Program-made: the position numbers and the translations under genes
DNA from: Dehalococcoidia bacterium
Lineage (GTDB): Bacteria > Chloroflexota > Dehalococcoidia > Lucifugimonadales > UBA2985
DNA length: 64,000 nucleotides
Assembly (NCBI GenBank): GCA_965263185.1
Contig: OZ253588.1
Location: 448,895-512,894 of the forward strand
Direction: 5' to 3'
Notes under the pieces: generated by a model
Told to the model about the DNA's origin: nothing
Seen by the model: the letters and a program-made list of their open reading frames with translations, nothing else
Databases searched by the model: none
Part shown: in pieces, positions 1 to 49,483 of the stretch
Position numbering within the stretch: position 1 is the first letter of the stretch
Layout: the number at the start of each line of letters is the position of its first letter

Positions 1-1403
1 GAGACCGACGACGACCTGGCAACCAAGTACCTGGAGGGAGAAACCATCTCAGACGAGGAGCTCAAGGAAGCTCTGAGCAAGGGTGTGGCTTCCGCCCAGA
101 TAGCGCCCGTGATGCCAGGCTCAGCTACACTGGGAATTGGGGTACAGGAGCTCCTTGAGGCTGTGAGGGAGTACATGCCCTCTCCAGCTACGCGGCCAGT
201 CGGCAGGAGGACTCGCCGGAGGCCGACCCGGAAGGCGCCCCGGCCGCGCTGGTCTTCAAGACCTCCGCAGACCCATACGTGGGTAAGATCTCCTTCTTCA
301 GGGTCTACAGCGGCGCCTTCAAAGCCGATTCCCAGATATGGAACAGCGACAAGAACCAGGTCGAGCGCGTGGGCCAGCTGTTCACCTTTCGCGGGAAGAC
401 CCAGGAGCAAGTCCCACAGGTGACGGCCGGCGACATTGGGGTTGTGACCAAGCTCTCGGCCACCACTACCGGGGACACGCTGTGCCAGAGAGACAACCCC
501 ATAACCCTCCCCGGAATCTCCTTCCCGTCGGCCCATCACACAGTGGCCGTCTACCCCAGAAGCAAGCAGGACGTGGACAAGATGTCCGCCTCGCTGGCGC
601 GCATGGCTGAGGAAGACCCCAGCCTGAGGGTGTACCGGGATCTGGACACCGGCGAGGTCCTCTTGGCCGGACTTGGAGACGTACACGTGGAGGTTACGGA
701 GGAGAAGATACGAAGGAAGTTTGGCACAGACCTGATGCTCCAGACACCCAAGATCCCCTACAAGGAGACCATAACCAGCGCCGCCAGGGTGGAATACAAG
801 CACAAGAAGCAGACGGGAGGCCACGGCCAGTACGGCCACGTGTTCTTGGAGTTGGAGCCTCTGCCCAAGAGCGGCGGCTTTGAGTTCGGGTCCAAGGTTG
901 TCGGCGGCAGCGTCCCGCGGGAGTACTTCCCTGCCGTTGAGAAGGGTGTGGTCAGGTCCCTAGAGGAGGGGTCTGTGGCAGGGTATCCTGTGGTCGACAT
1001 CAAGGTGGTCCTGTATGACGGCAGCTTCCACCCGGTGGACTCGTCCGGCATGTCCTTCGAGATTGCCGGTGGCTACGCCTTCAGAAAGGGCCTGTCCCTG
1101 GCTCAACCCGTCTTGCTGGAGCCCATAATGAGCGCCTCTATCAGGGTGCCGGACACCTTTACCGGTGACGTGACGGGAGACCTCAACACCAAGAGGGCGC
1201 GCATCCTGGGAATGACTCCCCAGGACGGCTACACCACCATAGACGTTGAGGCGCCACAGGCCGAGATGCTGAGGTACTCCACAGACCTGCGCTCCCTTAC
1301 CCAGGGCAGAGGCTCCTTTTCCATTGAGTTCGACCACTACGAGCCTGTCCCGGCTCACCTCACCCCAAAGATCGCCGGGGAGGCCAAGCGGGCAAGCGGC
1401 TGA
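1..1403 (+). CDS. fusA: Elongation factor G-family GTPase, 5' end outside window; reading frame switches from frame 1 to frame 3 around nt 186-215
   Basis: Frame 1 (nt 1-~200) reads ETDDDLATKYLEGE...LLEAVREYMPSPA, matching the EF-G G' region and LPSP motif. Frame 3 (open from nt 153) reads ...ALVFKTSADPYVGKISFFRVYSG...KKQTGGHGQYGHV...DSSGMSFEIAG...LRSLTQGRGSF. Stop at 1401-1403. Confidence 0.85.
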
Positions 1404-1645
1404 CCGGAGGCAGGGCAAGGGACGGAGTGGGCGCGAGCGATAACGGTTATCCCGCTCACGCCCTTCGACAAGCTCAGAGCCTGCCCCGCGCTTGATACGG
1501 GGGTGAGCGGGAAGGGGTTCCCCGTCCCGCTCGTGGTTAGCCGAGTTCCCCATCCCGCTCGTGGTTAGCCGAGTTCCCCGTCCTGCTCGTGGTGAGCCGA
1601 GTTCCCTTGCCCGCTCGTGGTGAGCCTGTCGAACCATATGAGCAG
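1404..1645. repeat. Intergenic REP-like cluster (FDKL/SLSNH family), including a 28-nt tandem array at 1517-1640
   Basis: Contains ttcgacaagctcagagcctgccccgcgcttgatacgggg and ggtgagcctgtcgaaccatatgagc motifs that recur at 24.3, 25.9, 26.1, 31.3, 50.2, 51.1 and 52.1 kb. Unit gttccccgtcccgctcgtggttagccga is repeated about 4 times head to tail (units start at 1517, 1545, 1573, 1601). Confidence 0.85.
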
Positions 1646-2228
1646 TGTCGCGCGCCACAACCAACACGTGTTGAGAATGCCGCGCGGTCGGCTGCCCATT
1701 GACTACAGAGCATCCACAGTCTACTGTAGAGCTATGAGAGTCCGTATCGGGGAACTGCTGCAGAGGCTGCACCACGTCCTGGCCTCAGTGGACAACGCCA
1801 TTCTTGGAGGGCCCGGCTTTCCATCAACGGCATCCTGAGGATACGACGCTGTTGCCGGGAGCCCGGTCTGGGCTTCACAACTCCGCAGCGACATCGACGC
1901 TGAGCTTGGCCTGAAGAAATAGCGCATCACAACGGGCCAGCAGCCCGCGCAACCCAAATCGCACGCCCCGCGGCGCAATCGAACGCCTCTCCCGACAAGC
2001 CCTCACCCATATTGCCGCGACTGAAGGGCGATGCCGTTGCAACGCTTGATGATTATTTTCACAAGCGCTAGAATTGCGCTTGAGATCCCACCGGACACGA
2101 CAACGCGAGCAATCTCCGGCTATGCCGCTGCCCGCAGTCCTGCGGGACGATGACCGGGTACAAGGGAGGTCACGCTTAGTTCTATCCGTCCCAACAACGG
2201 CGGACGAAGGGACGCAGAAGAGGGTCCA

Positions 2229-2873
2229 ATGCCAGGCAAACCCACCGACACGACAGACGATGTTCCGGAGGTGGTTGTACTCCGCCTTCCGCAGTATGTC
2301 CGCGCCCTGGGAGACCTGCTGAGGCGGAAGGTGTTGGTGGTGAGCTCCCAGCAGCTTGGGGCCCAGCTTCAGATGACGCCGGCCCAAATACGCAAAGACC
2401 TGAGCTACTTTGGGCGATTTGGCAAGCAGGGCCGCGGCTACCCCGTCAAGTACCTTCTGGGAGAGCTGCGCCGGGTCCTGGGGCTGGAGAGGAAGTGGAA
2501 CACGTGCCTGGTAGGCGTAGGACGCCTGGGGAGAGCCGTCATCAATTACCCCGGATTCACCCCTGAGGGGTTCAACATAGTCGCCGCGTTCGATACGGCG
2601 CCCGGCGAGGTGGGGACGACGATAGGCTCGCTGGTGGTACAGCCCATTGAAGAGATGGAACCCGCCATAAGGGACCGGGACATACGCATCGGCATCGTTG
2701 CAGTCCCCGCCTCTCACGCCCAAGAGGTCATAGACCAACTGGTGGGGTACGGCATCAAAGCTGTGCTCAACTACGCCCCCCTGGGCCCGCAGGTGCCGGA
2801 CGGTGTGCGAATTCGCAACGTAGACCCCATCCTGGCGCTCCAGTCCATGACCTACTACCTGAAAGCGGACTGA
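2229..2873 (+). CDS. rex: Redox-sensing transcriptional repressor Rex
   Basis: LRLPQYVRALGDLL...VSSQQLGAQLQMTPAQIRKDLSYFGRFGKQGRGY winged-helix region followed by a VGVGRLGRAV Rossmann GxGxxG motif. Length 214 aa. Confidence 0.9.
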   Translation: MPGKPTDTTDDVPEVVVLRLPQYVRALGDLLRRKVLVVSSQQLGAQLQMTPAQIRKDLSYFGRFGKQGRGYPVKYLLGELRRVLGLERKWNTCLVGVGRLGRAVINYPGFTPEGFNIVAAFDTAPGEVGTTIGSLVVQPIEEMEPAIRDRDIRIGIVAVPASHAQEVIDQLVGYGIKAVLNYAPLGPQVPDGVRIRNVDPILALQSMTYYLKAD

Positions 2874-3976: not shown

Positions 3977-6287
<2,311 letters not shown>

Positions 6288-33146: not shown

Positions 33147-33222
33147 GCCCCTGTAGCTCAGGAGGACAGAGCATCGGTTTCCTAAACCGAGTGCCCCGGT
33201 TCGAGTCCGGGCAGGGGTACCA
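33147..33222 (+). tRNA. tRNA-Arg (anticodon CCT), CCA encoded
   Basis: Cloverleaf read by eye: acceptor GCCCCTG/CAGGGGT (G1-U72 wobble), D arm GCTC..GAGC, anticodon arm TCGGT-TTCCTAA-ACCGA, T arm CCCGG-TTCGAGT-CCGGG, then ACCA. Confidence 0.9.
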
Positions 33223-33520: not shown

Positions 33521-34807
33521 CTAGTAGAGCTGTCCCGTGGGAACGGAGAACGCGAATCCAGGCTCGCCAATCATTCCTGCAGCGACGGTGGCGTTGGTTC
33601 CTTCGTCGATGAGGATGAAACTGCCGGTGACGCGGTTGCTGGTGTAGTCGTCGACCGCCAGCGGTGCGCTGACCTTGAGCTTGACGTGGCCGATCTCGTT
33701 TAGCCACAGCATATCAGAGTCCGTTTCGCCGGTGAGCGACGTGATGCTGAACAACGATACGAGGTCGGTTATCACTGCCTTAGCCGACCGCGTCGTGTGC
33801 TTGATACGGTACACATTACCAGGACGAAGCGCTGTGCGCTCATCCATCCAGCAAACGACTGCATCGAGCTCCTGGACCATTGCCGGTCCGTCGTCCGCTC
33901 CACAGATCATCTCCCCGCGAGTAACGTCAAGGTCGTCGGCTATCTGGACGGTTACGGCGTCGGGAGCGCGCGCCTCTTCCACGGCGCCCCAAGGCGCTTC
34001 GATGGTCGTGATGACGCTCTCCACGCCGGAGGGCACGATGCGCACTCGCTGGCCCACGCGCAGGACACCCGACGCGACGCTCCCCGCATAGCCCCGGTAG
34101 TCGTGATACTCCTCGCGGTGGGGGCGGACGACGTATTGAACAGGCATTCTCAACGGCAGCGAATCGAGTCCTTCGCGCACAGGCAGGCTTTCGAGGTGGG
34201 CCAGCAGTGGGTCACCCTGGTACCAAGGCATGTTCGCCGACGGCTCGACCACGTTGTCGCCGTTGAGCGCCGACATGGGGATGAAAGTCGCATCGTCCAC
34301 ATCGAGCCGCTCCATCAGCGGAGTGAATTTGGCGCGGACTGCTTCGTAGGTCCGCTCCTCATAGCCAACGAGATCCATCTTGTTGACGCAAACTACGATG
34401 CGATCGATGCCTAGCAACGAGGCGATAACGGCGTGGCGGCGTGATTGCTCCACCACCCCATTGCGCGCATCGATCATGATGAGCACCGCCTCTGCGGTGG
34501 ACGCCCCGGTGACCATGTTGCGCGTGTACTGCACATGCCCTGGCGTGTCTGCCAGAATGAATTTGCGCGTTGGAGTGGAGAAGTAGCGGTAGGCAACGTC
34601 GATGGTCACGCCCTGCTCCCGTTCCGCGCGGAGGCCGTCGGTGACGAGAGCGAGGTTCACGTAGTCGCCGTGGTGGCGCCGGCTGGCATCCTCGACGGCG
34701 GCGAGTACGTCGTCGTCGAGCGCCTTCGAGTCATACAGCAGACGACCGATGAGCGTGCTCTTGCCGTCGTCCACGGATCCGGCGGTGGCGATGCGGAGAA
34801 GGTCCAT
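33521..34807 (-). CDS. cysN: Sulfate adenylyltransferase subunit 1 (CysN, GTPase; no APS-kinase domain)
   Basis: MDLLRIATAGSVDDGKSTLIGRLL G1 motif, DTPGH, NKMD. Start at the ATG at 34807, which follows the cysD stop by one nt (TAGCATG); the ORF is open to 34882. Confidence 0.92.
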   Translation of the reverse strand: MDLLRIATAGSVDDGKSTLIGRLLYDSKALDDDVLAAVEDASRRHHGDYVNLALVTDGLRAEREQGVTIDVAYRYFSTPTRKFILADTPGHVQYTRNMVTGASTAEAVLIMIDARNGVVEQSRRHAVIASLLGIDRIVVCVNKMDLVGYEERTYEAVRAKFTPLMERLDVDDATFIPMSALNGDNVVEPSANMPWYQGDPLLAHLESLPVREGLDSLPLRMPVQYVVRPHREEYHDYRGYAGSVASGVLRVGQRVRIVPSGVESVITTIEAPWGAVEEARAPDAVTVQIADDLDVTRGEMICGADDGPAMVQELDAVVCWMDERTALRPGNVYRIKHTTRSAKAVITDLVSLFSITSLTGETDSDMLWLNEIGHVKLKVSAPLAVDDYTSNRVTGSFILIDEGTNATVAAGMIGEPGFAFSVPTGQLY

Positions 34808-34808
34808 G

Positions 34809-35798
34809 CTAGAAGTATCCCTCGCGCTTGCGGTCTTCCATCGCCGCCTCGGCAGTCCGGTCGTCAGCCCGCGTCGCGCCACGCTCGGAGATGCGCGCCG
34901 TCAGCGTCTCGGTGATGACTGCTTCGGGCGTGGCAGCCTCCGACGGTACAGCTGCTGTGGAGGTCATGTCACCGACGGTGCGGAAACGCACACTGCGGAC
35001 GACCACCGGCTCGCCACGTTGAGGCTGCATAACCGGCGATAGCGCCATGAGCATCCCGTCCTGCTCAAATACCTCGCGCTCGTGACCGTAGTAGATTTCC
35101 GGCAGGTCTATGTTCTCCTCGGCTATGTAGCGCCAGATGTCCAGCTCGGTCCAGTTGGAAAGCGGGAAGACGCGCATGTGCTGGCCGAATCCAATGCTGC
35201 TGTTGTAGAGGCTCCAGAGCTCCGGGCGTTGATTGCGTGGATCCCACTGGCCGAATTCGTCTCGCACGGAGTACACACGCTCCTTTGCTCGTGATCGCTC
35301 CTCATCGCGTCGCGCGCCGCCGAAAACCGCGGTGAACTTTCCCCGGCGAATGGTTTCCAGCAGTACCGGTGTCTGCATGCGGTTGCGAGGGTAATTTGGA
35401 CTCGGTGGGGTGGGAATTAGCGCTAAGGCAATTGCGTCGTCAACCGAGCCCACGACTAGGTCAATTCCAAGCCGCTCCACGACGCGATCACGGAAAGCGA
35501 TGACCTCGGGAAAGTTGTGGCCAGTGTCGATGTGGACCACAGGAAACGGCAGGTGGGCGGGTCGGAGCGCCTTGACGGCGAGATGCAGAAGCACGGCCGA
35601 GTCTTTGCCACCGGAGAAGAGCAGGCCCGGTCGATCAAACTCCGCGACCACCTCCCGAATAATGTGGATTGCTTCCGACTCAAGGGCGCGGAGATGCCAA
35701 GACTCGGAGCGATCGTTCAGATCGGCAAGCTCTTGCACACCCAATCTCTTTGACTCTGTTATTGGCATCCGGAGCTCCTTCTCGGAATATTCGGGCAT
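34809..35798 (-). CDS. cysD: Sulfate adenylyltransferase subunit 2 (CysD, PAPS-reductase fold)
   Basis: LRALESEAIHIIREVVAEFDRPGLLFSGGKDSAVLLHLAVKA...PVVHIDTGHNFPE...ELWSLYN...RVFPLSNWTELDIWRYI. ATG at 35798 has GGAGGGGG 7 nt upstream. The longer 391-aa ORF is rejected. Confidence 0.9.
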   Translation of the reverse strand: MPEYSEKELRMPITESKRLGVQELADLNDRSESWHLRALESEAIHIIREVVAEFDRPGLLFSGGKDSAVLLHLAVKALRPAHLPFPVVHIDTGHNFPEVIAFRDRVVERLGIDLVVGSVDDAIALALIPTPPSPNYPRNRMQTPVLLETIRRGKFTAVFGGARRDEERSRAKERVYSVRDEFGQWDPRNQRPELWSLYNSSIGFGQHMRVFPLSNWTELDIWRYIAEENIDLPEIYYGHEREVFEQDGMLMALSPVMQPQRGEPVVVRSVRFRTVGDMTSTAAVPSEAATPEAVITETLTARISERGATRADDRTAEAAMEDRKREGYF

Positions 35799-35827
35799 AA
35801 GAAAACCCCCTCCGTGTGCGAAGGGGG
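35799..35827 (-). terminator. Attenuator terminator / SD-sequestering hairpin directly upstream of cysD
   Basis: Minus strand reads CCCCCTTC-gcacac-GGAGGGGG (8 bp including one G-U) followed by TTTTCTT, then the cysD ATG. Confidence 0.6.
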
Positions 35828-35857
35828 CCAGAGGCTTTCTCTTCTGAACTGTCGGCG

Positions 35858-35947
35858 CTAGGCGATGAGCGTTGCGCTTGTCGAAGCAGAAGGCCATCTG
35901 GCCTCCAGACAACAACAGCAACAACACAGGCACATAGCGGCACTCAT
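35858..35947 (-). CDS. Candidate regulatory leader peptide MSAAMCLCCCCCCLEARWPSASTSATLIA (7 Cys codons)
   Basis: ATG at 35947 lies 8 nt downstream of a TACCAT -10 box, so the mRNA would be leaderless or nearly so. Cys codons run TGC CTG TGT TGT TGC TGT TGT TGT; TAG stop at 35860-35858. Lies between the promoter and the terminator of cysDN. Confidence 0.55.
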   Translation of the reverse strand: MSAAMCLCCCCCCLEARWPSASTSATLIA

Positions 35948-35955
35948 CAGAAACG

Positions 35956-35984
35956 ATGGTAACAGCGCGCAGCAGGTATGTCAA
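35956..35984 (-). promoter_or_regulatory. cysDN promoter TTGACA-N17-TACCAT
   Basis: Minus strand reads TTGACAtacctgctgcgcgctgtTACCAT. Confidence 0.55.
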
Positions 35985-36154
35985 GGTATTTAGCTCTCAT
36001 GGCGGCAGCGTAACCTTGGCCGGCTCCTCGCCTATTGGAGCGTTTGCCGCCACTCGCACTCCTCATACTCCGCTGTCCACCATTATAACCGACGGGCCGT
36101 TCCTCGGGCATGGGCCAAGACTATTGCGCGTAAACCAAGCGTGGAGAATCCTGG

Positions 36155-36580
36155 CTAGACTGTTGGGGTACCCAGACCTCCAAACGAGGCTGGCCGGGCT
36201 TCTTCCTCGCCAGGCCACGGGGGTGAAGTAAAGCAGAGAAATGTCAACGCCTCTCGTCCCGCGGCGAACTGGAAGCTCCATTGGGGTGGTATTGCCAGGG
36301 CGTCTCCAGGGCCAACCTGCAACGGCTTTACTTGAACCGGGTCTTGGTTGGGCGGGCAACGCCACACTGCTCCAACTCCCTCCAATACATACCAAAGTTC
36401 CTCCACATGCTGATGCCATACGGGCCGGGAAACCTGTCGAGCCTCCAACCTCACTTCACACAAGGATGCCCTAGCGGCAGCTTCCGCAACTCCCAAGAGC
36501 AGCCTTATCTCCGAGCCGTCGGGCGCAAGAGTGTCGGGGGATTGCGCCCGGTGACCGACTGGGGGACTCGCGTTATCCAT
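36155..36580 (-). CDS. Cupin-domain protein
   Basis: VSRPVWHQHVEELWYVLEGVGAVW...VGPGDALAIPPQWSFQF (cupin motifs 1 and 2). AAGGAG lies 5 nt upstream of the ATG at 36580. The upstream extension to 36823 is not protein-like. Confidence 0.75.
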   Translation of the reverse strand: MDNASPPVGHRAQSPDTLAPDGSEIRLLLGVAEAAARASLCEVRLEARQVSRPVWHQHVEELWYVLEGVGAVWRCPPNQDPVQVKPLQVGPGDALAIPPQWSFQFAAGREALTFLCFTSPPWPGEEEARPASFGGLGTPTV

Positions 36581-36827
36581 GGTTACTCCTTGGATGTGTT
36601 TCTTGCTGACGAATCTGGAGAAGAGAGGCGGGCCAGCCTGAGCCGTGATCGTCAAGTGTCCCCTCACTTGCTTGTGGAGAGCTTCGGCCCAACGTGGCTC
36701 TGGTGGGCCTGAATGCAGGTCCAGAACAAACCTTAGCGTAAAGCAACCGTCTTGAAAGTCAAGACGCAGGTGAAATCGGGTCCCTGTTTGCAATAAGCAT
36801 AAGCGGAGCGCTTCGAGACCCAAGCGT

Positions 36828-37013
36828 TCAGGGGTCGGATGGAGGCCCCGACAGCTCTCTGACGGCCCTGTTGCGCTCTCTTTGCCGTTCGATGGTTTGA
36901 GCCTTCACCTCCTTTCTCCGTCGCAGTACCTCTTCTCGCCTCCCACTTAGCCCGTCCGAGGGAGCTACGTTCCCCAGCGCCTTGTAGTAACGCCGGTAGA
37001 TGAAGTAGCTGAC
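36828..37013 (-). pseudogene. 3' remnant of an rve (DDE integrase-core) transposase, IS3/IS481-like
   Basis: Reads VSYFIYRRYYKALGNVAPSDGLSGRREEVLRRRKEVKAQTIERQRERNRAVREL...*, resembling the ...YN..R.HEALGN.TPADVY.GRREEIL.RRKEVK... C-termini of these transposases. It is cut off upstream by an in-frame TGA, and no intact catalytic domain is present. Confidence 0.55.
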
Positions 37014-37250
37014 TCACCTCTGCCTGCCTGGGCGCCAACGCGATTGGATTTAGGCGTCTGCTTGAATCAAGTGATGGCTGATGGCATAATGGCCTTGGTA
37101 AGGTCGAATTTGGCCCAGATGAAAGTACGTAATGTCGGGCGTATCGGGGTACCATATGCTGAAAGGGGTAACCCCATCCCGCAGTTTTTCGGGACCGCTA
37201 TTGCCTTTATTCCTGTTCTGTAGAAGCGCTGAGATGAAGGAGGTTGTAAG

Positions 37251-38519
37251 ATGGTGACTTCCGATAGACTTGGTATTCTGGTGGGAGGCGGGCCCGCGCC
37301 CGGCATAAACAGCGTCATAAGCTCCGTCACTATAGAGGCCATCAACTCCGGCCTCCAGGTGACTGGCATCTACGATGGGTTTGAGCATCTGATACAAGGC
37401 CGCACAGACCACGTGCAGCCACTTTCCATTGCCGACGTCTCGCGTATCCACTTCCAGGGAGGCTCCATCCTGCGCACTTCCAGGGCCAACCCTACGCGGC
37501 AGCCGGAACACTTGCAGAGGGTTGGCCAGACCCTCAAGGAGTTGGGCATAGGCTATCTTGTCACCATCGGCGGCGACGACACCGCCTTTGGAGCCGCCGA
37601 GGTGGCCAACGCCTCCTATGAAACGCTGCGGGTGGTCCACGTTCCCAAGACCATAGACAACGACCTGCCGCTGCCCGGCGGGATGCCTACCTTTGGCTTT
37701 GAGACCGCGCGTCAGGTGGGCGCCGAGATTGTGCTCAACATTATGGAGGACTCGCGTACCACCAACCGCTGGTACCTGGTGGTGGTGATGGGGCGCACAG
37801 CCGGGCACCTTGCGCTGGGCATAGGCAAGTCGGCGGGAGCCACCATTACCATAATCCCGGAGGAGTTCTCCAGGCCGCGCCTTTCGCTTGAGCAGGTCTG
37901 CAAAGTCATTGAGGGAGCCATCCTCAAGCGACGGTTCATGGGCCAGAGACATGGCATCGTGGTAGTCGCCGAGGGCATAGGCAGCAGGCTTGACCAAGAG
38001 GAGCTGGCCAAGGTCCCGGGCGTGGTGGTGACCCACGACCCCTATGGACACGTTCGTCTCGGTGAGATACCCCTGGCTATGATCCTCCGGCAGGAGGTGC
38101 AGCGGAGGTTTGCCGAACGGGGTGAGAACCTGCCGCTCGTCGACTATAACATTGGTTACGGATTGCGCTCCGCTGCGCCCGTTCCGTTTGACATCGACTA
38201 CACGCGCACGTTGGGTTACGGGGCTGTCCGCCTCCTTGTGGAAGAGACCAGGGATGACCTGTTGCACGGGTCGCTGATCTGCCTAGAGGGGGGGAGCCTG
38301 ACTCCCATACCTCTGCGAGACCTCCGAGACCCAGACACCGGTAGGACGCGGGTGCGCATGGTGGACATCGACTCGGCGCACTACAAGACCGCCCGGCAGT
38401 ACATGATCCGGCTGGAGAGGCGAGACCTGGAAGATCCTCGGACACTGGCCGGACTGGCCGATGCCGCTAACATGTCCAAGGAGGAGTTTACGGAGAGATA
38501 CTCACTGGTCGTGGGCTGA
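37251..38519 (+). CDS. pfp: Pyrophosphate-dependent 6-phosphofructokinase (PFK family, PPi-type signature)
   Basis: LGILVGGGPAPGINS, TIGGDDT (Asp at the position that is Gly in ATP-PFK) and VPKTIDNDL (Lys in place of Gly), the classic PPi-PFK discriminators. Confidence 0.85.
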   Translation: MVTSDRLGILVGGGPAPGINSVISSVTIEAINSGLQVTGIYDGFEHLIQGRTDHVQPLSIADVSRIHFQGGSILRTSRANPTRQPEHLQRVGQTLKELGIGYLVTIGGDDTAFGAAEVANASYETLRVVHVPKTIDNDLPLPGGMPTFGFETARQVGAEIVLNIMEDSRTTNRWYLVVVMGRTAGHLALGIGKSAGATITIIPEEFSRPRLSLEQVCKVIEGAILKRRFMGQRHGIVVVAEGIGSRLDQEELAKVPGVVVTHDPYGHVRLGEIPLAMILRQEVQRRFAERGENLPLVDYNIGYGLRSAAPVPFDIDYTRTLGYGAVRLLVEETRDDLLHGSLICLEGGSLTPIPLRDLRDPDTGRTRVRMVDIDSAHYKTARQYMIRLERRDLEDPRTLAGLADAANMSKEEFTERYSLVVG

Positions 38520-38638: not shown

Positions 38639-40189
38639 CTATTCCAGGAAATCTTTGAGCTTTCTGGAGCGAGAGGGATGGCGGAGTCTTCGCAGGGCCT
38701 TCGCCTCTATTTGGCGGATACGCTCCCGAGTTACGCCGAACTCTCTCCCGACCTCTTCCAGGGTGCGGCTGCGGCCGTCCTCCAGGCCGAAGCGCAGCTG
38801 AAGGACGCGGCGCTCCCGGACGTTGAGGGTGTCTAGGACGTCCTCAACCAGCTCCTTCAGGAGTTGGTAGGAGGCGGCGTCCGCGGGCGCAATGGCGCCC
38901 CTGTCCTCTATGAAGTCCCCCAGATGGTTGTCTTCCTCCTCGCCTATGGGGGTCTCCAGAGACACCGGCTCCTGGGAAATCTTGAGTATCTCCCGCACCT
39001 TCTCCGGGCTGAGCTCCATGTCCAGGCCAATCTCCTCGCTGGTGGGCTCGCGCCCAAAGTCCTGTACCAGCCGCCGGCTGGTGCGCATGAGCTTGTTGAT
39101 GGTCTCCACCATGTGGACGGGGATGCGAATGGTCCGGGCCTGGTCGGCGATGGCCCTGGTTATGGCCTGGCGTATCCACCAGGTGGCGTAGGTGCTGAAC
39201 TTGTAGCCCTTGCGATAGTCGAACTTCTCCACGGCGCGGATCAGGCCAATGTTCCCTTCCTGGACCAGGTCCAGCAGGGACATGCCGCGGCCGATGTACT
39301 TTTTGGCGACGCTTACCACCAATCGCAGGTTGGCTTCCGCTAGGTGCCTCTGAGCTCTTACACCCTCCTCCACAACCCCGTCCAAGTTGGCCTTCAGTTC
39401 GGCCTCCCGCGCCATGAGACCCCTGATGAATCCAGAGTCCTCAAGCGCCTGGGGTAGTCTGCTGAGCGGGGTCTCCTCTCCCATGATGCCGAACACGACC
39501 GGCGGCACTATACGGCTATTGACCGACAGACGTAGGAGGTCCCTTCGCAGCTCATCGGCAGGGTATTCCAGTTCCATTGCCAGATCTGCAACCATCTCAA
39601 GGTTTATCTCACTGTCTATGTTGGCAAGGACTTCCGGGTCTGAGCGTAGGTGCCAGAGGCTCAAGCTGCCGGGAATGTCCAGTCTTCTACCCAGAGCCTC
39701 CGCCAGGAACGAAGCCTGGCCCAGGCGTCTGAGGAGCAGGAGGACTATTTCGTAGGCTTTGGGGGGCCATCCGTTATGGGCGGCAATCTCATTCTCCAGG
39801 CTCTTGATCTGTATGCCGCACTCCATACTGCGGGCAAGGGTCCGCTCACCCTGGGCGGTCAGAAGATGGACCCGGCCTATCTCCCGGAGGTACATCCGGA
39901 CGGGGTCGTCTATCATGTCAGGGATTTCCAGTTCGGCCTCAAGCTCTACTTCTCCGCCTTCCACCGCGGCGCCTATCTCCTCCAACTCCTCTTTGGCCAG
40001 AGAGGTAGGGATTGCAGGCACGTCTGCCTCGCCGTCGACCTGTGGAACGGAGGTGTCGATGCCCAGCTCCTTGGCATCATCCCTTATGTTGGACCCCACC
40101 GTTGCCAGAATGCTCTCCGATGCCCCGTCTTCCTCTTCCGAAAGCTCGCTTATTAGCTCGTCTAGCTCGTTATTTCGATTTCTTGCCAT
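38639..40189 (-). CDS. rpoD: RNA polymerase primary sigma factor
   Basis: [11 protein letters not shown], region 2 [57 protein letters not shown], region 4 [20 protein letters not shown]. Confidence 0.96.
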
Positions 40190-48926: not shown

Positions 48927-49009
48927 TGCCCAGGGAGGGATTCGAACCCACACCCCCTTGCAGGGAGCGGATTTTAAGTCCGCCGCGTCTACCCTTCCGC
49001 CACCTGGGC
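48927..49009 (-). tRNA. tRNA-Leu (anticodon TAA), class II, no encoded CCA
   Basis: GCCCAGGTGGCGGAAGGGTAGACGCGGCGGACTTAAAATCCGC + long variable arm + TTCGAATCCC...CCTGGGCA. One U-U mismatch in the T stem. Confidence 0.85.
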
Positions 49010-49023
49010 TTGTAAGGCGGTTT

Positions 49024-49064
49024 CAAACAAAAGAGCAGAAAGGGCGCTGGTCCCCGTTCTGCTC
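49024..49064 (-). terminator. Hairpin + U-tract between tRNA-Cys and tRNA-Leu(TAA)
   Basis: Minus strand reads GAGCAGAA-cggggaccagcgccct-TTCTGCTC followed by TTTTGTTTG. Confidence 0.4.
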
Positions 49065-49081
49065 CGTACTCCCGGATGCTA

Positions 49082-49157
49082 TGGAGGCGACGGGCGGACT
49101 CGAACCGCCGAATAGAGCTTTTGCAGAGCTCCGCCTTAACCACTTGGCTACGTCGCC
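49082..49157 (-). tRNA. tRNA-Cys (anticodon GCA), CCA encoded
   Basis: GGCGACGTAGCCAAGTGGTTAAGGCGGAGCTCTGCAAAAGCTC...GGCGGTTCGAGTCCGCCCGTCGCCTCCA. Confidence 0.9.
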
Positions 49158-49179
49158 TTGCCTCTATTGTACCATTTTT

Positions 49180-49266
49180 TGGTGCCGAGGAGGAGATTTG
49201 AACTCCTACGGGTTTGCACCCACGGCCCCCTCAAGACCGCGTGTCTACCAATTCCACCACCTCGGC
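49180..49266 (-). tRNA. tRNA-Leu (anticodon GAG), class II, CCA encoded
   Basis: GCCGAGGTGGTGGAATTGGTAGACACGCGGTCTTGAGGGGGCCG + variable arm + AGGAGTTCAAATCTCCTCCTCGGCACCA. Confidence 0.9.
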
Positions 49267-49282
49267 AGTAGGCGCCCTATTT

Positions 49283-49359
49283 TGGCAGGAGTGGGAGGAC
49301 TCGAACCCCCGACCTGCGGTTTTGGAGACCGCTGCTCTAGCCAACTGAGCTACACTCCT
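49283..49359 (-). tRNA. tRNA-Trp (anticodon CCA), CCA encoded
   Basis: AGGAGTGTAGCTCAGTTGGCTAGAGCAGCGGTCTCCAAAACCGCAGGTCGGGGGTTCGAGTCCTCCCACTCCTGCCA. Confidence 0.9.
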
Positions 49360-49407
49360 GTAAAAGCCCACACAATAATGCAGGGCTATATGCCAATTTT
49401 CACTATA

Positions 49408-49483
49408 TGGTACCCCAGGCAGGACTCGAACCCGCAACCTACGGCTTAGAAGGCCGCCGCTCTATCCTTTGAGCTACTGGGGC
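49408..49483 (-). tRNA. tRNA-Arg (anticodon TCT), CCA encoded
   Basis: GCCCCAGTAGCTCAAAGGATAGAGCGGCGGCCTTCTAAGCCGTAGGTTGCGGGTTCGAGTCCTGCCTGGGGTACCA (G1-U72 wobble). Confidence 0.9.

Follow-up and report, generated by a model that had tools for sequence, protein, structure and literature searches.

The cysDN genes in the 64-kb stretch of DNA analysed here (the window) are preceded by a short open reading frame (sORF) rich in cysteine codons and by a hairpin with a U-tract, which raises the question of how such a leader might control the genes behind it. An earlier note on this DNA had proposed an attenuator of the trp/his type, keyed to Cys-tRNA charging and placed over sulfate activation. Sequence, folding and comparative evidence support this proposal, and each computational check suggested in the note came out in its favour. 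Most likely, the leader is an attenuator of the ribosome-mediated, leader-peptide kind, which responds to the charging of tRNA-Cys and controls transcription of cysDN, or of cysH-cysD-cysN in relatives. All features described below lie on the minus strand.

The promoter was read from the sequence and recovered by a mechanical promoter/terminator scan. It consists of a -35 box TTGACA (35979..35984), a 17-nt spacer and a -10 box TACCAT (35956..35961) with TG in front, giving a 10/12 match. The sORF opens at ATG 35947, 8 nt past the -10 box, and extends over 29 codons (MSAAMCLCCCCCCLEARWPSASTSATLIA*, 35858..35947), with counterparts in 12/12 relatives. Seven of its codons specify Cys and six of these are consecutive. 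The predicted regulatory Cys codons (35909..35932) are codon 6 (TGC, 35932-35930) and codons 8-13 (TGT TGT TGC TGT TGT TGT, 35926-35909). The promoter, the start codon and the seven-Cys ORF were all found as the earlier note had read them. Cys accounted for 24% of the sORF codons versus 1.1% in the long ORFs of the window, a 22-fold enrichment. No other run of at least five consecutive Cys codons was present in any frame of the window, and the leader was also its single instance of an sORF plus terminator with a cluster of C, W, H, F, M or Y codons.

The promoter arrangement was shared by the related leaders described below. TTGACA or TTGACT with a spacer of 17-18 nt was present in 10/12 tabulated leaders. 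The distance from a TAnnnT box to the sORF start was 7-9 nt in 11/12 and 6 nt in locus L081, and a gap of 6-9 nt was seen in at least 11 of the 13 leaders. Such a short distance between -10 box and start codon points to leaderless translation. With the transcription start placed from promoter spacing, the transcript probably begins at A35947 or 1 nt before it, and the sORF would thus be leaderless. Leaderless genes are reported to be uncommon in Chloroflexi, at about 5% (PMC3160421). Upstream, at a distance of 171 nt, lies the end of a cupin-like ORF in the same direction, and the scan detected no terminator in between; some transcripts could therefore hold the sORF internally, where it lacks a Shine-Dalgarno (SD) sequence. 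Comparison of region 35985-37250 with the relatives revealed no similarity, and most neighbouring ORFs gave no match in Pfam and NCBIfam.

The hairpin behind the sORF was predicted to be an intrinsic terminator by folding and by the terminator scan. It has the form GGCCCCCUUCG-CACA-CGGAGGGGGUU (35804..35829) with 11 bp and about -19 to -22 kcal/mol according to the boundaries folded. It begins 28-30 nt past the sORF stop and is followed by the U-tract UUUUCUU (35799..35805), which was evident from both sequence and scan; a U-tract was present in 13/13 leaders. The hairpin, the U-tract and ATG 35798 lie as had been claimed, and the 11-bp form at 35829-35804 is the best version of the hairpin. 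A competing antiterminator helix was also found. Its 5' strand GGAGGCCAGAUGGCCUUCUG (35887..35906) pairs with 35846-35824 when a ribosome is placed on Cys codons 8-11, and its 3' strand CAGAAGAGAAAGCCUCUGGCC (35826..35846) ends in 4-6 nt that form the base of the terminator 5' arm. The helix 35903-35887/35846-35826 drawn in the earlier note could be reproduced exactly. Moreover, the minimum-energy fold and the RNAalifold consensus of 8 leaders contained a default-state (anti-antiterminator) domain (35869..35927). Here bases 35927-35913 of the Cys run form a helix with 35883-35869 around a local hairpin GGAGGCC/GGCCUUC (35906-35889), which holds the antiterminator 5' strand and so locks it up.

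The folding of the leader with the ribosome at different positions was then compared. The whole leader folded at -67 kcal/mol (z = -3.4), beating 200/200 dinucleotide shuffles. The unconstrained minimum-energy fold was the terminator state, in agreement with the RNAalifold consensus. Constrained folds without a ribosome, with the ribosome at the stop codon or with the ribosome on the last Cys codon all retained the full terminator. When the ribosome was set on Cys codons 8-11, the antiterminator formed and the terminator shrank from 11 to 7 bp. In silico, terminator and antiterminator are thus mutually exclusive and the ribosome position decides between them, as had been anticipated; the overlap of the antiterminator covers only 4-6 nt of a terminator 5' arm that is 10-11 nt long, and a 7-bp hairpin persists in the read-through state. 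The equilibrium outcome varied with the assumed ribosome footprint, and with a boundary of +12 nt a ribosome on Cys8 still gave the terminator. For the distant leaders L168-L171, the very stable terminators were never lost in equilibrium constrained folds, indicating that the attenuator model leans on kinetic, co-transcriptional folding. In co-transcriptional folds of every leader, the distant ones included, stalling of the ribosome gave the antiterminator domain an energy of -17 to -45 kcal/mol, compared with -1.4 to -6 kcal/mol once the ribosome stood at the stop. The latter state was judged by these energies, since the count of arm nucleotides paired is noisy: helices as weak as -2 to -6 kcal/mol enter into it.

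From these folds the following mechanism can be proposed. The near-consensus, probably constitutive promoter would produce a transcript starting at or beside the AUG of the 29-codon sORF, which would be translated leaderless. When cysteine is plentiful, the ribosome would translate all seven Cys codons and reach the UAG stop; as long as it covers the two antiterminator strands or stands between them, they could not pair. The hairpin 35829-35804 and its U-tract would then form behind RNA polymerase, and transcription would terminate about 30 nt short of the cysD ribosome-binding site. When Cys-tRNA is scarce, the ribosome would stall with Cys codons 8-11 in the A site. The stalled ribosome would melt the default helix between the Cys-codon bases and 35883-35869, exposing GGAGGCCAGA...CUUCUG (35906-35887), and the exposed strand could pair with CAGAAG...UCUGGCC(CC) (35846-35824) once that is made. 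The antiterminator would take the bottom 4-6 nt of the terminator 5' arm, so that the leftover stem would no longer adjoin the U-tract. With stem and U-tract parted, the polymerase may read through into cysDN. A leader that is not translated would be expected to adopt the minimum-energy fold, the terminator state, which amounts to superattenuation.

Because the hairpin lies close to cysD, the start of this gene bears on whether control is exerted on transcription or on translation. The earlier note had taken the terminator 3' arm as the cysD SD and had suggested that the hairpin blocks both processes. The arm sequence GGAGGGGG does stand 8-15 nt upstream of ATG 35798, an ATG in frame with the conserved cysD start, and was fully paired (P(unpaired) = 0.0). 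However, conservation of ATG 35798 fails among the relatives: L161 and L162 have TTG at this position, L001 has GTG followed by an in-frame TGA, and the codon is missing in L164, L165 and L167. The SD in the terminator arm was rejected on this ground. The ATG at 35768, on the other hand, has its own SD, AAGGAG (35775..35780), 6 nt ahead of it, and this GGAG and ATG were invariant in an alignment of 9 leaders. The SD at 35780-35775 lies outside the hairpin and, with P(unpaired) = 0.51, is not strongly sequestered. A dual block is therefore unlikely.

The same observations bear on a translational attenuation of the type known for the mycobacterial leader Ms5788A, in which GGAGGGGG would serve as the SD for ATG 35798 and be freed by stalling, with transcription unaffected. 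The sole polyCys leader that has been dissected experimentally does act by SD sequestration. Still, we consider this explanation unlikely for the window, given that ATG 35798 is not conserved and that the invariant GGAG and ATG stand 30 nt further downstream, off the hairpin and half-paired. Moreover, the U-tract abuts the stem in 13/13 leaders, unrelated sequences included, and SD sequestration needs none. The mycobacterial Cys codons pair with the SD region, whereas those of the window pair with sequence internal to the sORF. The transcriptional attenuator is therefore preferred.

The leader also bears on the annotation. In the source assembly, the cysD call is a protein of 391 aa (P0001) starting at TTG 35984, which engulfs the leader. 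The earlier note had regarded the VLLLLL-containing N-terminal extension as spurious, and this 391-aa call, covering the leader as it does, bears out that it is an annotation artefact. Gene callers thereby fold the leader into a false 62-residue CysD N-terminus (391 aa versus 329 aa from ATG 35798).

The conservation of the leader was analysed at 12 other loci of the Dehalococcoidia type, all with the upstream region intact and with CysD 72-95% identical to that of the window. All 12 had a Cys-cluster sORF (2-7 Cys) ahead of a sulfate-assimilation operon, a G-rich segment soon after the Cys codons that is able to pair with a C-rich terminator 5' arm, and a GC hairpin with U-tract, the distance from sORF stop to terminator being about 19-37 nt. 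At the sequence level, blastn showed homology to the leader of a Dehalococcoidia MAG (L001; 71% over 224 nt, E = 2.5e-24), where it sits upstream of cysH-cysD-cysN. Beyond L001, blastn of the leader against 160 loci gave no match, and none among about 150 cysD loci from Actinobacteria and other groups, indicating that sequence search by itself misses distant members. Five of the leaders (L081 and L168-L171) could not be aligned to the window leader, yet had the same architecture, with peptides MNIMKGTCCCCCCPTGVGV, MSCFCCNPCCCISS..., MFQMSVICCCCSG..., MIFTLCRNCACTCCP... and MSFPNAFCC...; L169 had just two adjacent Cys codons. Their terminators were unrelated in sequence but equivalent in role. 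The in-frame Cys cluster and downstream terminator that had been named as points to look for in an alignment were thus found in 12/12 relatives, the five unalignable ones among them.

A scan for the architecture gave 15 positives among 172 loci on the cysD strand, namely 13 Dehalococcoidia-type loci (including L172, which is the window's own contig) and two weak actinobacterial ones. On the control strand 1/172 loci was positive. Apart from those two weak matches, the combination of Cys sORF, G-rich segment and terminator was absent from the roughly 150 actinobacterial and other cysD loci, and the complete architecture was not found in L002, L003 and L053, other Chloroflexota with 64-69% CysD identity. 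L002 contained an 8-Cys sORF without a terminator. In dinucleotide shuffles, an sORF with at least three Cys in five codons arose in 0.3-4% of upstream regions, compared with 11/12 of the real leaders tested. These values argue against the leader being a chance product, that is, a slipped (TGT)n repeat lying between promoter-like and terminator-like sequence. The Cys run is indeed a near-perfect trinucleotide repeat, and its copy number varies between close relatives (the window and L161 have 6 copies, L162 has 5, and L001 and L166 have fewer). However, non-repetitive Cys clusters, such as CRNCACTCC and CFCCNPCCC, recur in independent lineages, always in an ATG- or GTG-initiated frame, upstream of cysH or cysD and with a terminator after them. 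The comparative data effectively refute the chance explanation, which is scarcely credible.

The sORF was open in 13/13 loci, which would also be expected if it encoded a functional Cys-rich micropeptide, for example a metal-binding or redox one, co-expressed with the sulfur genes and with the hairpin as its full or partial terminator. Cys-rich small proteins exist, and L001 has a second Cys-rich sORF downstream of cysN. However, peptide conservation was limited to the Cys cluster: the residues downstream of it varied, and close relatives were frameshifted after the Cys run (L164 versus L165). Conservation of the Cys codons alone fits a regulatory rather than a functional peptide. The sORF length ranged from 19 to 29 codons, even close relatives differed in their number of Cys codons (3 to 7), and the conserved spacing between stop and terminator is relevant to attenuation, not to a peptide. 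A micropeptide function is thus highly implausible, and a regulatory leader peptide remains the preferred reading.

Pairing was then compared across the 9 alignable leaders. The terminator was 94.8% paired with 2 compensated pairs, and the antiterminator was 87.2% paired versus 33-63% in slid controls. The local hairpin was 92.1% paired, and in 2 sequences one of its C-G pairs was replaced by U-A through a double change; slid controls for the three helices together ranged from 33 to 81%. One C-to-U change preserved pairing in both alternative helices. Since the leaders that can be aligned are closely related, covariation was modest: each helix had 1-2 double-sided changes, and the shuffle controls were only weakly exceeded.

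The strong structure of the leader RNA (z = -3.4) and the non-Cys blocks conserved in the close group (GGAGGCC, CCUUCUGC and CCUAGCGCCGAC) could also suit a leader that answers a protein or a small molecule rather than Cys-tRNA charging, the Cys codons being secondary. We consider this very unlikely. The blocks conserved in the close group coincide exactly with the strands that form the alternative helices. The distant leaders share neither sequence nor a common fold beyond the terminator, the Cys codons and the logic of the antiterminator, which argues against a ligand aptamer or a protein operator. Furthermore, a search of 35500-36400 with E up to 10 gave no Rfam leader, riboswitch or T-box family (Trp/His/Leu/Thr, SAM), and at gathering score tRNAs alone passed in the whole window.

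The proposed attenuator was compared with known systems. With the E. coli and Salmonella leaders trpL, hisL, leuL, thrL, pheL and ilvL (Yanofsky model), it shares a leader ORF containing codons for the end-product amino acid and an intrinsic terminator ahead of the first structural gene. It also shares a default helix in which the antiterminator strand is locked, an antiterminator overlapping the terminator 5' arm, and, here in silico, the selection of the structure by ribosome position. In contrast to the classical leaders, the window leader would sense cysteine and belongs to the phylum Chloroflexota, and its peptide seems to be read from a leaderless mRNA instead of starting behind an SD. 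Neither by sequence nor by Rfam is it related to those families. Neither a terminator-based Cys attenuator nor any leader-peptide attenuator of Chloroflexi was found in the searchable literature, which mostly excluded subscription journals.

The earlier note had mentioned computational predictions of Cys-rich leaders in Actinobacteria, and this was correct (PMC1262725; Canestrari et al. 2020). In the mycobacterial 'Cys ribulon', leaderless polycysteine sORFs such as Ms5788A act as attenuators (Canestrari et al. 2020, bioRxiv 10.1101/834739 / Mol Microbiol 114:93). There too, a consecutive-Cys sORF is the first cistron of a cysteine or sulfur operon, and stalling at the Cys codons is proposed to relieve downstream repression; leaderlessness is a prediction in the window. 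However, control in Ms5788A is translational, its Cys codons pairing with the region around the SD of the following gene, whereas the Cys run of the window pairs with 35883-35869. Terminators were not found for actinobacterial cys leaders (PMC1262725), in contrast to the 13/13 Chloroflexota leaders that have a GC hairpin and U-tract with the SD outside. The Cys run lies in the middle of the ORF in the window but near the stop codon or C-terminus in the mycobacterial descriptions. The mycobacterial and actinobacterial sORFs belong to another phylum and have no sequence alignable to the window leader.

Passages of a study on Deinococcus deserti describe a leaderless peptide of 10 aa with 2 Cys upstream of cysS, for which transcription attenuation was predicted (de Groot et al. 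2014, PMC4007540). As far as those passages go, it resembles the window leader in that the 5' AUG of a leaderless transcript opens a short Cys ORF and attenuation is proposed. It differs in targeting a tRNA synthetase gene rather than sulfate assimilation, in having two Cys codons and in phylum, and these same passages of PMC4007540 contain no terminator/antiterminator structure or conservation analysis.

The 13 loci, from uncultured organisms, probably form a Dehalococcoidia-wide family not described before, in which cysteine attenuators work through a terminator and the leader peptides are leaderless, and whose origin is independent of the mycobacterial Cys sORFs. The attenuator mechanism itself is familiar, and cysteine and Chloroflexota are probably new for it. 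If this is true, cysteine joins the amino acids controlled by classical terminator/antiterminator attenuation, earlier Cys leaders lacking terminators or acting on translation. Leader-peptide attenuation would then also reach Chloroflexota, a phylum dominated by uncultured members in which gene regulation is barely known. The dissimilar leaders follow one design, in which Cys codons are followed by a G-rich strand and a C-rich terminator arm, indicating a convergent or rapidly evolving RNA logic. This order provides a simple search rule for further leaders, and similar leaders on other sulfur or cysteine operons of those genomes could make up a 'Cys ribulon'.

The genes controlled by the leader are consistent with this function. 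The conserved ATG opens cysD (sulfate adenylyltransferase subunit 2, 34809..35768; NCBIfam CysD, E = 2e-130), which is followed by cysN (sulfate adenylyltransferase subunit 1, 33521..34807; NCBIfam CysN and source-assembly call), the final gene of the operon. With CysD and CysN downstream, a cysteine-keyed function is coherent. Junction analysis showed that cysD codons 1-23 (35768-35701) are derived from cysH, and a tblastn search of the rest of the 64-kb window gave no cysH. Judging from this junction, cysH is lost from the window lineage by an in-frame deletion, and a leader that normally stands ahead of cysH-cysDN would consequently now drive cysDN directly. Such a deletion indicates that the first gene under an attenuator can be exchanged for another. 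Past cysN, a convergent tRNA-Arg gene was observed.

The leader elements lie upstream of cysD on the minus strand of the window. By direct reading, a -35 box TTGACA (35984-35979) and a -10 box TACCAT (35961-35956), separated by 17 nt, are followed 8 nt on by an ATG at 35947, which opens a 29-codon sORF, MSAAMCLCCCCCCLEARWPSASTSATLIA* (35947-35858), in which seven codons specify Cys, six of these without interruption (35926-35909). A GC hairpin (35829-35804; best form 11 bp, GGCCCCCUUCG-CACA-CGGAGGGGGUU) lies 28-30 nt past the sORF stop, and a U-tract, UUUUCUU (35805-35799), stands directly 5′ of an ATG at 35798. All these elements were found where the earlier note had placed them. Both the terminator and the promoter came out independently in consensus scans, the latter as a TG-extended 10/12 match. 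The 161-nt leader folded at -67 kcal/mol, beating 200/200 dinucleotide shuffles (z = -3.4). Cys made up 24% of the sORF codons versus 1.1% in the long ORFs of the window (GC content 60.7%), and TGT accounted for 5/7 of the leader Cys codons (35909-35932), whereas the long ORFs favor TGC about 2:1 (159 vs 76). Nowhere else in the window, whatever the frame, do five or more Cys codons stand in a row, and the leader is its sole sORF-plus-terminator with a rare-amino-acid cluster. The genes downstream are CysD (E = 2e-130) and CysN. The Rfam search returned no family match for the leader.

The annotated cysD (P0001, the 391-aa call of the source assembly; 34809-35984, minus strand) starts at TTG 35984 and runs across the promoter, the terminator and, in a different frame, the sORF; this spurious N-terminal extension hides the leader. 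In an alignment of nine leaders, the ATG aligned with 35768 was the invariant start, preceded by an invariant GGAG (AAGGAG in the window, 35780-35775). At the position of ATG 35798, loci L161 and L162 carry TTG, L001 carries GTG and then an in-frame TGA, and L164, L165, and L167 have no counterpart; this ATG is window-specific among the compared leaders. Because it is not conserved and the invariant GGAG and ATG lie further on, the terminator 3′ arm was ruled out as the conserved cysD Shine-Dalgarno (SD) sequence. The full-length fold left the true SD only about half-paired (P(unpaired) = 0.51). Thus, the proposal that the hairpin also blocks translation through an SD in its 3′ arm falls, and the element is set apart from the mycobacterial SD-sequestering type. 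The cysD calls of L161 and L162 begin at the TTG equivalent to 35798 and are probably too long as well.

In one search, the top genome match was a Dehalococcoidia MAG (L001, CysD 89% identical), followed by other Chloroflexota and then Actinomycetota at 60-66%. The L001 leader is homologous to that of the window (71% over 224 nt, E = 2.5e-24), with TTGACA, an 18-nt spacer, TAACAT, and 8 nt on an ATG opening MFAVMCLCSCPREARGSSARTRAAVST*. It keeps the GGCCAGAG...CUCUGGCC pairing as in the window and has the terminator GGCCCCCUCC...GGAGGGGG+U7. Relatives with CysD 75-95% identical were compared together with their contigs, and wherever the upstream region was intact, a Cys-cluster sORF preceded the first operon gene. 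The leader peptides were MSAAMCLCCCCCCPEARGSSASTSAPLTA in L161 (CysD 95%), MSATMCLCCCCCQEARGPSASTCAPLTA in L162 (93%), ..MHMVCCCCRRRPEGLLLQHARR in L165 (90%), ..MHMVCLCCRRRLGSLLLRHACR in L167 (88%), ..MHMVCLCCRPEAGEPSALTPVPVAA in L164 (87%), MFTVMCLCCCPREAREPSARTRAAVTT in L166 (86%), MFQMSVICCCCSGNEGEAFVSGAQEK in L168 (81%), MSFPNAFCCLLTREPLALRKLPDVC in L169 (79%), MNIMKGTCCCCCCPTGVGV in L170 (76%), MIFTLCRNCACTCCPMTLERAA in L171 (75%), and MSCFCCNPCCCISSLNEQGAKHVLA in the metagenome locus L081 (72%). Peptide conservation is restricted to the Cys cluster, with frameshifts after it even between close relatives. A strong GC hairpin with a U-tract lies 19-37 nt past the stop of each sORF, and the hairpin sequences of L081 and L168-L171 are unrelated. 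The in-frame Cys cluster and downstream terminator, whose conservation the earlier note had named as a check, are therefore kept in relatives.

A uniform architecture scan of the cysD strand was positive at 15/172 loci, namely 13 Dehalococcoidia-type loci (including L172, the window's own contig) and two weak actinobacterial ones, versus 1/172 in the opposite-strand control. An sORF with at least three Cys in five codons occurred in 0.3-4% of dinucleotide-shuffled upstream regions versus 11/12 real leaders tested. The same scan did not find the complete architecture in L002, L003, or L053, Chloroflexota loci that are more distant (CysD 64-69%). L002, an uncultured Dehalococcoidales contig (CysD 69%), carries a 31-codon sORF with eight Cys, MVSLKECTCPPTPGRARCAFCMCCINTKAAC (2638-2733, plus strand), some 230 nt ahead of cysD; no recognizable terminator or SD was seen in that region, and the sORF may work by another mechanism or represent a degenerate element. 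Cys run length varies among close relatives (6, 6, 5, then 2-4 clustered); the TGT bias and this variation are consistent with TGT-repeat slippage tuning sensitivity. Almost every locus has different genes around the leader-operon unit, which indicates that the leader moves together with the operon rather than with the neighboring genes. In L165, the Cys leader is immediately preceded by IS66-family transposase fragments (1111-2175, minus strand).

In 10/12 tabulated leaders, TTGACA or TTGACT is separated by 17-18 nt from a TAnnnT box, which an ATG or GTG follows after 7-9 nt. L171 has a TG-extended -10 box with a likewise 8-nt gap to the start, L081 reads TTTACA-N16-TATCTT with a 6-nt gap, and L168 is apparently leadered. 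Given this constant spacing, the transcription start site is predicted at or beside the sORF start codon. Leaderless genes have been reported as a minority in Chloroflexi, about 5% (PMC3160421).

Helix pairing was scored on the nine-leader alignment against slid controls. The terminator was paired in 94.8% of cells, with two compensated pairs (controls 52-78%), and the antiterminator, the competing helix proposed earlier (35903-35887 with 35846-35826), in 87.2% (controls 33-63%). A local hairpin, GGAGGCC/GGCCUUC (35906-35889), was paired in 92.1% (controls 41-81%). Both L164 and L167 carry a C-to-U change that is met by a G-to-A partner in the local hairpin and forms U·G in the antiterminator, so both alternative helices are satisfied; the closeness of the alignable sequences limits covariation. 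From eight leaders, RNAalifold derived the terminator state as consensus, and also a hairpin with the last Cys codon at its base and the local hairpin at its top.

When the window leader was folded at equilibrium, the full 11-bp terminator formed without a ribosome, with a ribosome at the UAG stop, and with a ribosome placed on either Cys6 or Cys13. Once a ribosome held Cys 8/9-11 in its A site, the MFE switched to the antiterminator, which shortens the terminator to 7 bp and takes its stem off the U-tract; the limits of this codon range vary with the assumed footprint (+12 or +14 nt). Ribosome position thus decides in silico between the mutually exclusive structures that the note had envisaged. 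In L168-L171, very stable terminators persisted at equilibrium and the switch was not seen. Since attenuation is kinetic, the RNA available before synthesis of the terminator 3′ arm was also folded. When a ribosome was parked at the Cys codons, the G-rich strand just 3′ (GAGGGA in L168 and L169, CGGGGGU in L170, AGGG in L171) paired with the C-rich terminator 5′ arm. In these distant leaders the helix spans the stop codon, with a domain ΔG of -17 to -27 kcal/mol (close group, -30 to -45 kcal/mol); when the ribosome stood at the stop codon instead, no more than -1.4 to -6 kcal/mol was left. The distant leaders therefore build the same logic from unrelated sequences.

We infer transcription start, sORF translation, stalling, and termination as follows. 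Transcription would begin at a probably constitutive promoter, and the sORF would be translated from its leaderless start. With ample Cys-tRNA, the ribosome would pass the Cys run and cover or separate the antiterminator strands, the terminator would form, and transcription would stop at 35805-35799. With scarce Cys-tRNA, a stall on Cys 8-11 would open the default helix and free 35906-35887 to capture 35846-35824; the terminator base would be lost and RNA polymerase would read into cysDN. A conserved cis-regulatory element upstream of cysDN is real. Conservation and the in silico switch back the earlier reading of a trp/his-like layout keyed to Cys-tRNA, and the leader is very probably a cysteine-responsive classical attenuator. 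We are highly confident of the Cys-sensing role, and transcription termination is likely the controlled step.

The leader shows every sequence-testable feature of Yanofsky-type attenuators (trpL, hisL, and relatives). Like mycobacterial polycysteine sORFs (Canestrari et al., 2020), it would sense Cys via an sORF that is probably leaderless, but it lacks their hallmark, Cys codons pairing with the SD and translational control; blastn of the leader and the architecture scan found no sequence relationship. Cys-rich leaders in Actinobacteria, mentioned in the note, are indeed described, with terminators explicitly not found (Seliverstov et al., 2005; PMC1262725). For Deinococcus deserti, transcription attenuation has been predicted for a leaderless 2-Cys leader ahead of cysS (PMC4007540). 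Leader-peptide systems were known to Naville and Gautheret (2010; PMC2965389) from Proteobacteria and Actinobacteria only, and these authors added Firmicutes. In the searchable literature, whose coverage is incomplete, neither a terminator-based Cys attenuator nor any leader-peptide attenuator in Chloroflexota is reported. The principle is already known; new are the Cys specificity for the terminator type, the phylum, and the predicted leaderless start.

The operon behind the leader in L001 is cysH-cysD-cysN, with cysH in first place. In the window, the 23 codons that begin at the conserved start (35768-35701, minus strand; MPITESKRLGVQELADLNDRSES) correspond to the CysH N-terminus (L001: MPAPESNGLSAQELADLNERFES), joined to CysD at GAGTC (35705-35701), which is present in both genes. 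L161 and L162 carry the identical junction, and tblastn found no cysH elsewhere in the 64-kb window. This fusion at a shared GAGTC shows that the window lineage lost cysH by in-frame deletion between two microhomologies, which left a CysH′-CysD chimera, an operon without cysH, and the leader directly ahead of cysDN. The regulated operon is cysD-cysN alone because tRNA-Arg(CCT) (33147-33222, plus strand) is convergent with the cysN end. The longest Cys runs belong to the cysH-less lineage. L001 has a second Cys-rich sORF, MDCHEAVDAAKEHRAQVNGCIHCCGNCYTG (5429-5521, plus strand; five Cys), between cysN and the next ORF, with a weak hairpin resembling a terminator behind it; this sORF could encode a small protein, act as a further regulatory leader, or have arisen by chance.

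Between about 35985 and 37250 no gene is called, and the upstream regions of relatives show no similarity to this segment. It contains a cupin-domain ORF uncalled in the source annotation (36155-36580, minus strand; Pfam Cupin_1, E = 9e-8), co-directional with the leader and ending 171 nt upstream of the -35 box; no terminator was detected between them. The neighboring PPi-dependent phosphofructokinase (37251-38519, plus strand; NF041103, E = 6e-181) and primary sigma factor RpoD (38639-40189, minus strand) have no tie to sulfur metabolism. Five tRNA genes cluster at 48927-49483 (48.9-49.5 kb, minus strand).
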